Below are positions 1,918 through 13,925 of a stretch of DNA of 17,913 nucleotides, one piece after another. A model generated the notes under the pieces. The model was not told where the DNA came from, searched no databases, and saw only the letters and a list, made by a program, of their open reading frames with translations. Source of the stretch: a virus (Duplodnaviria; Heunggongvirae; Uroviricota; Caudoviricetes); the IMG/VR virus record IMGVR_UViG_2671181134_000011. One strand, 5' to 3'. Positions within the stretch are counted from its first letter, which is position 1, and the number at the start of each line of letters is the position of its first letter. The translations under genes and the position numbers were made by a program.

Positions 1918-2219
1918 GAATCCTCCCGGCCGGGATAATATTGTGAGTAAAATAAGGAGCGGGCTGAAGTCCGGAAGTTACAGGACAATGGCAGAAGGGA
2001 GACGACAGCCCGCAATTCGAAAAAGACCGCGCAGTTGCGCAGCCTTATGAATTCTGGTTAAAATCCATTCGATTATAAAAATGTATATCTCATGCTGTTG
2101 CCCGAACCCACTCAGGCTTTTTTTTGCCCACAAGAAAGCCCCTCCGGAGAGGGGCTGGAGAGTGGCGCTATGTGCCATTGCATGGTGCCGGTTGCCTCCC
2201 GGTGAGTTCAGTATCAGCA

Positions 2220-2261
2220 NNNNNNNNNNNNNNNNNNNNNNNNNNNNNNNNNNNNNNNNNN
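2220..2261. other. Assembly gap (run of 42 N)
   Basis: Literal N characters in the sequence. Confidence 0.95.
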
Positions 2262-2304
2262 ACGGGAAAGCAACAACCACCACACCCATCAGCCGCCCAT
2301 TTAC

Positions 2305-2336
2305 CACAAATAAAAAAGCCTTCAGGACTGAAGGCG
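2305..2336 (-). terminator. Intrinsic terminator (minus strand) overlapping the stop of the 65-aa ORF
   Basis: Perfect hairpin gccttcag/gac/ctgaaggc at 2318-2335; the plus-strand A-run aaataaaaaa at 2308-2317 gives a U-run 3' of the stem on the minus transcript. Confidence 0.4.
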
Positions 2337-2725: not shown

Positions 2726-2754
2726 ATTGAAGCAGTTTATTGATCAGTTTGCAA
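2726..2754 (-). promoter_or_regulatory. Candidate late promoter (pR'-like) overlapping the 3' end of the Q-like gene
   Basis: On minus strand: -35 TTGCAA (plus 2749-2754), 17-nt spacer, -10 TTCAAT (plus 2726-2731). It lies ~60-80 nt upstream of the tR'-like terminator, as expected for a Q-utilisation promoter-terminator unit. Confidence 0.3.
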
Positions 2755-3309
2755 CATTTTTTTCTCTGTAACAAAAGCCATACGCATGGGGGCATGTAAC
2801 ATAAATTCAGATATCCCCAACCACTGATCAATTCGGCGTCTGCACGTAACCAACGTCCACTCAGGATGATCTGCATTTAACCTTTCGGCCATTTTCAGTT
2901 TGCTCATTCCCCGTCCTTCGTACCTTTGCCGGAGAATATTGATTAGTCCGGGATATTCCCCAAGCACCTCACTGATAACGCGATCAATAATCAACGCCTC
3001 TGTGTCTGTACAATGTGACAACCAGCTCTTCTGCTTCCCTCTGGTCATATCCCGAAAAAATGCCTCAAGTTCCGGTTTTTCCAGCCCGGATTTCTTCATT
3101 CTGCGTAAAACCTCATTAACTGCTGTTTTCGTCAGCTTTTTCGAAACCAGTAACCGGTTAAACATATTTCCGTATTTACCCCCACCGATATACGACCACC
3201 GCCCCCACATCCGTAATTTCCCCTGGATCCAGACTGCTTCCAGCGTGTTCAGGCGTAAATGTTCGCCGCTTTTGCCTGTAATTTCCGGATATATCATATT
3301 TACGCTCAC
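2737..3309 (-). CDS. Putative late-gene antiterminator Q (assigned by position; family not recognised by eye)
   Basis: 190-codon ORF immediately 3' of rusA (GTGA start/stop overlap at 3306-3309; alternative ATG at 3295-3297) and immediately 5' of the pR'-like promoter and terminator. No Zn-finger motif seen, so family assignment is uncertain. Confidence 0.5.
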   Translation of the reverse strand: MSVNMIYPEITGKSGEHLRLNTLEAVWIQGKLRMWGRWSYIGGGKYGNMFNRLLVSKKLTKTAVNEVLRRMKKSGLEKPELEAFFRDMTRGKQKSWLSHCTDTEALIIDRVISEVLGEYPGLINILRQRYEGRGMSKLKMAERLNADHPEWTLVTCRRRIDQWLGISEFMLHAPMRMAFVTEKKMLQTDQ

Positions 3310-5174: not shown

Positions 5175-5330
5175 TTACTCCTCAGGTTCGTAAACTGTGA
5201 AGACAGCGACCTCCGTCTGGCCGGTTCGGATTCGTACCTCGCAGAGGTCTTTCCTCGTTACCAGTGCCGTCACTATGACGGTTAAACAGATGACGATCAG
5301 GGCGATTAACATCGCCTTTTGCTGCTTCAT
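5175..5330 (-). CDS. hok: Hok-family membrane toxin (51 aa)
   Basis: Translation MKQQKAMLIALIVICLTVIVTALVTRKDLCEVRIRTGQTEVAVFTVYEPEE: single TM helix and conserved C-terminal region typical of Hok/RelF. ATG at 5328-5330 with AAGGAG 10 nt upstream. The ORF track extends it in frame to an ATG at 5387. Confidence 0.8.
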   Translation of the reverse strand: MKQQKAMLIALIVICLTVIVTALVTRKDLCEVRIRTGQTEVAVFTVYEPEE

Positions 5331-5506
5331 AGCCTGCTTCTCCTTGCCTTTCGGCACGTAAGAGGCTAACCTAGATTTGCCGTTCATAGATTGAGCCTCA
5401 GATTAATGTTAAGCGTCTTGCAGGACGCGTAATGTTAACTGGGGCTTTTCTCTATCTGCCTTTTGGTATTCATGCCTGAGACAGATAGCCTCAAGCACCC
5501 GCAGCA

Positions 5507-12926: not shown

Positions 12927-13079
12927 ATGGATACTATCGAGCTTGGCAACAACGAATCTCTGGTGTGCGGAGTATTCCCCAACCAAGACGGCACGTTTAC
13001 CGCGATGACGTATACCAAAAGTAAAACGTTTAAAACCGAAGCTGGCGCGCATCGCTGGTTAGCCAGAAACGCTAACTGA
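12927..13079 (+). CDS. Small ydfA-like (DUF1391-like) protein, 50 aa
   Basis: ATG 12927 to TGA 13077-13079: MDTIELGNNESLVCGVFPNQDGTFTAMTYTKSKTFKTEAGAHRWLARNAN. Below the ORF-track cut-off. Resembles small proteins following the repressor in Qin/Rac-type prophages (from memory). Confidence 0.5.
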   Translation: MDTIELGNNESLVCGVFPNQDGTFTAMTYTKSKTFKTEAGAHRWLARNAN

Positions 13080-13334
13080 TTAGCGCCAGTAAAAACAGGT
13101 TTCCACAGGTTAATTTACCCTGAAAAGTCAGGGCATAACACGAAAGCGCACGGCGAGATTCCTTTGCATATAAGGTTAGATTTCTTCGACCGTGCGCTTC
13201 CGGTTGTGGCAATCCGCGAAATGGCGCGGCGGTAAGTATGGCGGGGTTATTCCTTCCCCCGTTGAGGACACCGGGTTGTCAGGTTGACCATACGCTTAAG
13301 TGACACCCCAGCCACAACAACCTCTGTTATCACT

Positions 13335-13373
13335 TTTCTGGTGATTCGGCGGAAATGAATATCCGCCCTTTTT
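13335..13373 (+). ncRNA. dicF: DicF-like small RNA, shortened variant, with intrinsic terminator
   Basis: tttctggtga ttc ggcgg aaatgaatat ccgcc cttttt: the 5' UUUCUGGUGA, the GGCGG...CCGCC stem and the 3' CUUUUU tail match K-12 DicF as I recall it, but ~20 nt of internal sequence are missing. Lies directly upstream of dicB. Confidence 0.5.
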
Positions 13374-13551
13374 AAAGTGAATTTTGTGATGCTGTGAATG
13401 CGGCTATGCGCACGCGGAACAGTTAAAGCAGTAAGGCGGTCTTTTACTGGCGTAACGAGCATCAACTAACCCGACGTTAATTGTTAACTGGTTAACGTCA
13501 CCTGGAGGCACCAGGCGCTGCATCACAAAATTCATTGTTGAGGACGCGATA

Positions 13552-13740
13552 ATGGAAACGTTATTACCAAACGTTAATACGTCTGAAGGTTGTTTTGATA
13601 TTGGTGTTCTGCTCAGTAATAAAGCGTTTACTGAGGATGCCATTAATATGCGGAAATATGAGCCTTATCTGCTCAATGATAATTCCATTCTTTCCCGAAT
13701 TGCCCTTATTAAACTTGGTATTTTCGGAGAACGTCAATGA
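13552..13740 (+). CDS. dicB: DicB-like cell-division inhibitor (62 aa)
   Basis: METLLPNVNTSEGCFDIGVLLSNKAFTEDAINMRK... matches the DicB N-terminus (MKTLLPNVNTSEGCFEIGV...FTEDAINKRK, from memory). GAGGA SD 6 nt upstream of the ATG; AT-rich codon usage. Confidence 0.7.
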   Translation: METLLPNVNTSEGCFDIGVLLSNKAFTEDAINMRKYEPYLLNDNSILSRIALIKLGIFGERQ

Positions 13741-13925
13741 CTTCAGCATTTGCACTGGTGATGACGGTTTTTCTTATAACGGGTGAATAACAGAATGTGA
13801 TTACCGGAATTTATGCCAGTAAAGAATCCTGCCTCCAGGCAAGAGACGAGCAAAAAATTTCTGGTGAATGCCTACCGGTAAAAAAAGTATCGCTGAACCT
13901 GAATAACGAAACACCGGCTGGATAA
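13737..13925 (+). pseudogene. ydfD-like small membrane protein gene interrupted by in-frame TAA at codon 18
   Basis: ATG 13737 (ATGA overlap with the dicB stop): MTSAFALVMTVFLITGE, TAA at 13788-13790, then 44 further in-frame codons QNVITGIYASKESCLQARDEQKISGECLPVKKVSLNLNNETPAG to TAA at 13923-13925. Total 63 codons, the size and position of Qin ydfD as recalled. Confidence 0.45.

Follow-up and report, generated by a model that had tools for sequence, protein, structure and literature searches.

A shortened dicF allele upstream of dicB in prophages of O157:H7 and other STEC, a candidate terminator and processing module

The 39-nt element located upstream of dicB in the window (the whole 17,913-nt stretch of Caudoviricetes DNA analyzed here) raises the question of whether it is an allele of dicF and, if so, what may remain of the function of that gene. 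DicF is a well-known example of a prophage sRNA through which division and metabolism of the host and, in EHEC, virulence are controlled. The locus comprises the following features:

12927-13079 (+), DUF1391 (ydfA-like) gene, upstream member of the operon (100.6 bits; annotation)
13335-13373 (+), short dicF allele (read directly; dicF orthology by alignment)
13374-13551 (+), spacer between dicF and dicB, with a conserved hairpin CACCUGGAGGCACCAGG just upstream of dicB (sub-threshold similarity to STnc100)
13552-13740 (+), dicB, intact, 62 aa, 65% identical to K-12 DicB (Pfam DicB, 121 bits)

The element occupies a dicF-type position, i.e. it lies on the same strand between the DUF1391 gene and dicB. 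Downstream of dicB there are a ydfD-like DUF1482 gene, an 823-aa exonuclease, an excisionase ORF (called in the PGAP annotation of an identical region) and a lambda-type integrase, and the divergent cro/ydaS-ydaT-replication genes lie to the left of the operon. The locus is an early-left, repressor-controlled (dicBp-type) operon of a lambdoid prophage. The chromosomes of several STEC isolates from humans contain its 481-bp dicF region (13080-13560) without a single difference. Parts of the dicF-dicB spacer are conserved as strongly as dicF; its score against the Rfam STnc100 model (gathering score 47) is 21.7 bits in the window, compared to 29-34 bits for the spacers of K-12, O157 and other loci. 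The ydfD-like DUF1482 gene (13737-13925, +) overlaps the dicB stop and carries a premature stop at codon 18 (TAA; TCA in O157:H7), and PGAP annotates only its C-terminal 42 codons, from a GTG start at 13797.

Read directly, positions 13335-13373 (+) are TTTCTGGTGA-TTC-GGCGG-AAATGAATAT-CCGCC-CTTTTT, which is exactly the string given in the initial annotation of the window; the K-12 DicF sequence given there for comparison agrees base for base with NC_000913.3 1649382-1649439. The alignment also upholds the statement that the first 10 nt of DicF, the GGCGG/CCGCC stem and the U-tail are kept. The internal loss, put at about 20 nt, proves to be a net 19 nt, and it consists of two separate changes rather than a single deletion. 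Beyond the ten identical nucleotides of the 5' tail a CG is missing and one U has become C, by which the canonical 5' seed UGGUGACGUUUGG is converted to UGGUGAUUCGG, and in place of the canonical 27-nt interior UAUCAGUUUUACUCCGUGACUGCUCUG there is a 10-nt loop of unrelated appearance, AAAUGAAUAU. Counted to the CCC at which the K-12 annotation stops, the short allele has 34 nt (53 nt in K-12), and 39 nt with the U5 tail; a stretch of it that can serve as a probe target is UUCGGCGGAAAUGGAUAUCCGCC. Its parts are:

13335-13347 (+), 5' tail UUUCUGGUGAUUC, single-stranded (nt 1-13 unpaired in the predicted fold)
13348-13367 (+), terminator hairpin, 6-bp stem GGCGGA/UCCGCC, 8-nt loop AAUGAAUA (fold of -10.7 kcal/mol; terminator scan)
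13368-13373 (+), C followed by U5 (13369-13373), predicted terminator and putative Hfq-binding 3' tail, the same as in K-12 DicF (alignment; terminator scan)

An intrinsic terminator was defined by a GC-rich stem of at least 5 bp, a loop of 3-8 nt and a U-run immediately after. An independent terminator scan finds the hairpin with 6 pairs, 5 of them G-C, a loop of 8 and then CTTTTT, so that by this definition the short allele is predicted to bring about intrinsic (Rho-independent) termination.

To place the element with respect to known dicF genes, the ydfA-dicB intergenic region was aligned with those of the O157:H7 strain Z1835, of phage Tritos, in which DicF is annotated, and of the Qin prophage of K-12. 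Over 250 nt on its upstream side and 180 nt on its downstream side, the element is flanked by sequence that can be aligned position by position with the dicF loci of K-12 Qin, Tritos and O157:H7. The flanks are about 95% identical to the K-12 Qin and Tritos loci over more than 400 nt, and the sole large difference falls inside the DicF hairpin; the element is therefore a true dicF allele and not a chance likeness. The 5' end UUUCUGGUGA matches DicF in 10 of 10 nt, and the upstream context CUCUGUUAUCA of the end that RNase E generates in K-12 is identical save for an A to C change at position -2. Synteny and flank homology thus bear out the claim of a shortened dicF-locus allele upstream of dicB.

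The covariance model of DicF (RF00039, gathering score 48 bits), against which the initial annotation had proposed to check the element, gives a different answer. It has no match at the gathering level in the whole window and none at E<=10 in positions 13150-13560 (411 nt); likewise, there is none at E<=10 in two other short-allele loci and none at E<=1 in prophage Sp14 of strain Sakai. Among the controls, K-12 DicF scored 76.7 bits and an allele of the O55:H7 type 43.5 bits. Since even a permissive threshold yields no match, membership was judged by synteny and alignment. By the criterion of the curated model the element is not a DicF; its position and flanks, together with its 5' end and terminator, make it an allele of dicF. 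The missing model match is also what could be cited for a chance resemblance to DicF, but this reading is excluded by the positional orthology and by the identity of the flanks, and TTTCTGGTGA alone is expected only 0.04 times per window, so we consider it vanishingly improbable.

Which of the DicF functions may be left depends on the segments that pair with target mRNAs. DicF pairs through its 3' region with the ribosome-binding site (RBS) of ftsZ and through its 5' end with xylR (Balasubramanian 2016, PMC5069750), and the 3' end pairs with manX (Azam & Vanderpool, PMC5861419). The dicF23 mutation weakens the repression of ftsZ and also abolishes that of pykA (PMC5069750); therefore, a mutation located in the part that pairs with ftsZ also affects pykA. 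The initial annotation had supposed that the target spectrum would be altered if pairing, e.g. with ftsZ, used the missing segment. The missing segment is indeed the ftsZ-pairing part, but the 5' targets are not kept either, as the validated xylR seed shrinks from 13 to 6 bp. In canonical DicF the anti-Shine-Dalgarno motif ACUCCG complements the Shine-Dalgarno sequence of ftsZ. This motif is missing from the short allele: the interior helix CAGU/ACUG and the ACUCCG loop are absent, AAUGAAUA stands in their place, and no pairing with the ftsZ RBS is found.

Duplex energies were calculated segment by segment and compared with shuffles, an approach that is informative for xylR, pykA and manX and has low power overall. 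Canonical DicF matches the pykA RBS over 13 nt (-23.7 kcal/mol), manX over 10 bp at GCAGAGCAGU (-29.0 kcal/mol), and xylR +7..+19 through a 13-bp duplex of UGGUGACGUUUGG (-20.3 kcal/mol). The short allele retains only UGGUGA of the xylR seed and does not reproduce the -20.3 kcal/mol at the canonical site. Its best duplexes with the ftsZ, pykA, manX and xylR leaders reach -12 to -16 kcal/mol at unrelated sites, and they fall within the range of the shuffles save for a borderline one at the xylR RBS (-16.2 kcal/mol, shuffle fraction 0.04-0.07). Against pchB and pchC the canonical interior gives -25.9 and -22.8 kcal/mol, respectively, compared to about -12 kcal/mol for the short allele. The validated DicF-ftsZ pairing is itself inseparable from shuffles in this test (fraction 0.38), and for that reason the argument for loss rests mainly on the missing complementary stretches. 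Full-length duplexes with opening energies gave unrealistic whole-molecule pairing and were dropped. On these grounds all known DicF pairing modules, i.e. those for ftsZ, pykA, manX, pch and xylR, are predicted to be lost or truncated. Within the window, a scan for sites complementary to the 13-nt seed revealed none that is convincing.

The processing context upstream has been kept. In K-12 the dicBp polycistron is cut by RNase III to a 190-nt species, RNase E generates the 53-nt DicF, and the dicF terminator acts partially, with read-through (PMC10448788). The same authors deduced from the size of a blot band a 1,146-nt ydfABC-dicF transcript (PMC10448788), which fits an end at the dicF terminator with read-through into dicB. 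The corresponding features of the window are:

13141-13202 (+), long hairpin, the homologue of the site at which RNase III generates the 190-nt precursor in K-12 (predicted, -26.4 kcal/mol, z -4.1)
13198-13334 (+), conserved 137-nt precursor body, the 5' extension of the long DicF species (alignments; PMC10448788)
13329-13345 (+), hairpin AUCACU/GGUGAU predicted for the precursor, the edge of whose loop coincides with the position of the DicF 5' end (RNase E)

The RNase III-type stem also forms in K-12 according to fold prediction. The precursor hairpin has a predicted energy of -6.5 kcal/mol (z -3.6) in the short allele and -6.3 kcal/mol (z -2.9) in the canonical one, in a different register, and in these models the allele-specific changes (A to C and the loss of CG) agree with the precursor structure having been preserved. 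The 190 nt upstream of dicF (13141-13334, +) are highly conserved across allele classes and about 95% identical to K-12, above the level of the flanking genes. RNAalifold revealed no informative covariation among 106 distinct precursor sequences, because these sequences are too similar. In 30 distinct short-allele loci there are 5 variable columns per 40 between -20 and +75, i.e. the element is no more conserved than its flanks, and consequently conservation does not discriminate between a role in cis and one in trans.

Pattern scans of IMG/VR and of GTDB genomes reveal three classes of dicF alleles, which are 59 nt (canonical), 57 nt (O55-type) and 40 nt (short) in length when the leading T and the U5 tail are counted. 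The short class was found in dicF context in 51 prophage loci with 7 distinct sequences. Their loops read AAAUGAAUAU, AAAUGGAUAU or AAACGGAUAU, the stem is followed by C or A, and there are three stem variants, two of which (GGUGG and CCGCU) still pair as G-U, while the third (GGCAG) breaks the pairing. In 46 of these 51 loci the gene downstream of the short allele is an intact dicB of 62 aa, and at least 13 DicB protein variants, belonging to both main types, occur in this position; canonical dicF is likewise found upstream of both main DicB types. This distribution indicates an established lineage that recombines among prophage backgrounds, not a one-off lesion. Among complete E. coli genomes (n=5426), a megablast search with a 62-nt query specific to the short allele identified it in 442 (about 8%), at 528 places and with up to 3 copies per genome, and the canonical dicF interior is present in 4011. 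The genomes with the short allele are mostly O157:H7 and other STEC, and most O157:H7 genomes among the matches listed carry it. It is also present in E. albertii and absent from the sequenced genomes of isolated phages in INPHARED.

The O55-type class, UUUCUGGUGACGUUUGGCGGCAUCUGUUUGCCCAUGAACUGAUGUCCGCCC, is represented by L006:437-486 (O55:H7 USDA5905) and also by the loci L014, L115 and L135 (the latter from E. albertii). Like the short allele, it combines a conserved 5' part and terminator stem with a diverged interior, and AUGAA occurs both in this interior and in the loop of the short allele; unlike the short allele, it has the full length, a complete canonical 5' seed and 43.5 bits in the Rfam model. 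As this score falls just under the gathering score, the O55-type allele may be under-annotated, and since its diverged interior lacks the anti-Shine-Dalgarno motif ACUCCG, it may not target ftsZ. Together, the three allele classes suggest that the DicF interior is an evolvable target-recognition module. A different kind of change is seen in Shigella flexneri SFBU1023 (L139, about 1433-1500, -), where a canonical dicF has visibly decayed, showing scattered substitutions and a broken stem and U-tract; this degenerating dicF contrasts with the cleanly truncated short allele.

In the O157:H7 reference strain Sakai the short allele is found in Sp14 at about 2,707,678-2,707,716 (NC_002695.2), between ECs_2767 and ECs_2768 (dicB), at a site where nothing is annotated. 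Sp11 and Sp12 carry canonical dicF. Sp10 was considered as a short-allele site and rejected, as it is Rac-like and has no dicB. For strain EDL933 the four copies DicF_1 to DicF_4, of 52-56 nt, are reported at 1.255, 1.881, 2.159 and 2.326 Mb (PMC5331693), and a passage of a review that cites Melson & Kendall 2019 likewise gives four DicF copies for EHEC (PMC7873438). The Sp14 allele (2.708 Mb) lies near serU, and none of the listed EDL933 copies is in the serU-linked prophage region. Because all four entries lie outside that region, the Sp14 short allele appears to be a fifth, uncounted locus beyond the four published O157:H7 DicF copies. The four copies resemble it in being prophage-borne paralogues with the same operon context in the same genomes, but they have 52-56 nt, compared to 34-39 nt for the short allele. 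A literature search retrieved no paper that links DicF with Sp14 or CP-933U, neither DicF nor dicB is mentioned in the supplements of Tree 2014, which also give no matching coordinates, and no description of the short allele was found in the searchable literature. HnrS, a multicopy prophage sRNA of EHEC, was rejected as the identity of the element, since it has 66 nt and is encoded in the late region.

Compared with DicF of K-12 Qin (RF00039), the short allele shares the locus in the dicBp operon upstream of dicB, the first 10 nt, the GGCGG/CCGCC stem, the U5 tail and the upstream processing context with the RNase III-type hairpin and the 137-nt precursor body; it differs in being 19 nt shorter, in lacking the interior helix and the anti-Shine-Dalgarno ACUCCG loop, in its altered 5' seed, in being missed by the Rfam model, and in the predicted loss of pairing with ftsZ, pykA, manX, pch and xylR. 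It also resembles the terminators inside lambdoid early-left operons, in which a short GC-rich stem with a small loop and a U-tract precedes a toxic gene, but, unlike these, it derives from the gene of a trans-acting sRNA and still carries the 5' end of that RNA.

The explanation that we favour, with moderate confidence and by analogy with K-12, is that the short allele serves the dicB operon as a terminator and processing module, shedding an RNA of 34-39 nt that would no longer act as DicF. We prefer it because the cis features (the stem, the U-tract and the processing context) are strictly kept and the known trans features are gone. By the same analogy, the hairpin and the U-tract would act in cis as a partial intrinsic terminator of the upstream transcript and would limit read-through into the toxic dicB, and trimming by RNase III plus RNase E would yield RNAs about 171-176 nt and 34-39 nt long. 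The short RNA would not be a DicF-type division inhibitor and, in particular, would not silence ftsZ, and any activity in trans would have to reside in the 13-nt 5' tail. The invariance of this tail and the equal stability of the precursor hairpin would fit continued selection for a processed, seed-bearing sRNA as well. Such a functional minimal sRNA, the idea of the initial annotation, is the main rival: an RNA of 34-39 nt would be bound by Hfq and would regulate mRNAs complementary to UUUCUGGUGAUUC, and the locus would be uncoupled from the control of ftsZ. Its architecture of seed plus terminator is intact with the 5' tail predicted to be unpaired, neither the processing context nor the RNase III hairpin has been lost, its U5 tail does not differ from that of the Hfq-dependent DicF, the lineage is old enough for 7 variants in two species and many dicB backgrounds, and the borderline xylR RBS pairing points in the same direction. 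On the other hand, the validated DicF pairings are all lost or truncated, the seed has no convincing complementary site in the window, and the element is conserved only as its flanks are; to our knowledge, 39 nt would also be shorter than any well-established Hfq-dependent sRNA. We regard this rival as somewhat unlikely, though serious.

The opposite possibility is that the element is a neutral remnant, i.e. a decayed dicF that has no function in cis or in trans and is carried along with dicB. The failure of the Rfam model and the loss of the interior agree with it, and so does the premature stop in the neighbouring DUF1482 gene, which indicates that some decay is occurring in the prophage of the window. 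Decay, however, would hardly be expected to leave the stem and U-tract perfectly kept around an interior swapped for a compact loop, with two of the three stem variants wobble-compatible; nor does it suit the presence of the allele in 442 genomes in up to three copies, the intact dicB in nearly all the loci scanned, or the different appearance of a truly decayed dicF (the Shigella flexneri one with its broken U-tract). We therefore disfavour the neutral remnant as quite improbable. A more ambitious reading would have dicF as a modular sRNA cassette, in which a fixed 5' end and terminator enclose a swappable target-recognition interior of the canonical, O55 or short type; the short allele would then be expressed as a seed-only, Hfq-bound sRNA of about 35-39 nt with an EHEC regulon of its own, as a fifth DicF paralogue. 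We put this forward tentatively, as distinctly unlikely in its full extent.

DicF copy number has been counted from Rfam-type hits, which the allele present in about 8% of the complete E. coli genomes, including Sakai, escapes. If the fifth-paralogue reading is true, Rfam-based annotation misses this allele, and experiments that delete the four recognized dicF copies leave it uncovered. If the preferred terminator and processing reading holds and the RNA is inactive in trans, the prophage would have shed the toxic ftsZ-silencing module and kept the terminator that gates dicB. If the RNA is active, it would be an unrecognized EHEC regulator, among the shortest Hfq sRNAs.

Several other sequences in the window deserve mention. 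A second exact copy of TTTCTGGTGA occurs at 13858-13867 (+), inside the DUF1482 coding sequence; it is present in O157 loci and Sakai Sp11, absent from K-12 and Tritos, and probably represents coincidental coding sequence. An STnc100 match at the gathering level (47.6 bits) was found at 2126-2326 (-), directly downstream of a Q-type antiterminator ORF (2737-3309, -; DUF1133 and Phage_antitermQ), and it is probably the late-promoter (pR') leader or a short terminated transcript of the prophage. Finally, there is a hok/sok-type toxin-antitoxin locus at 5325-5500 (-), where the Rfam sok antitoxin RNA is matched over its full length with 112 bits, and a small ORF (5175-5387, -) overlaps this match.
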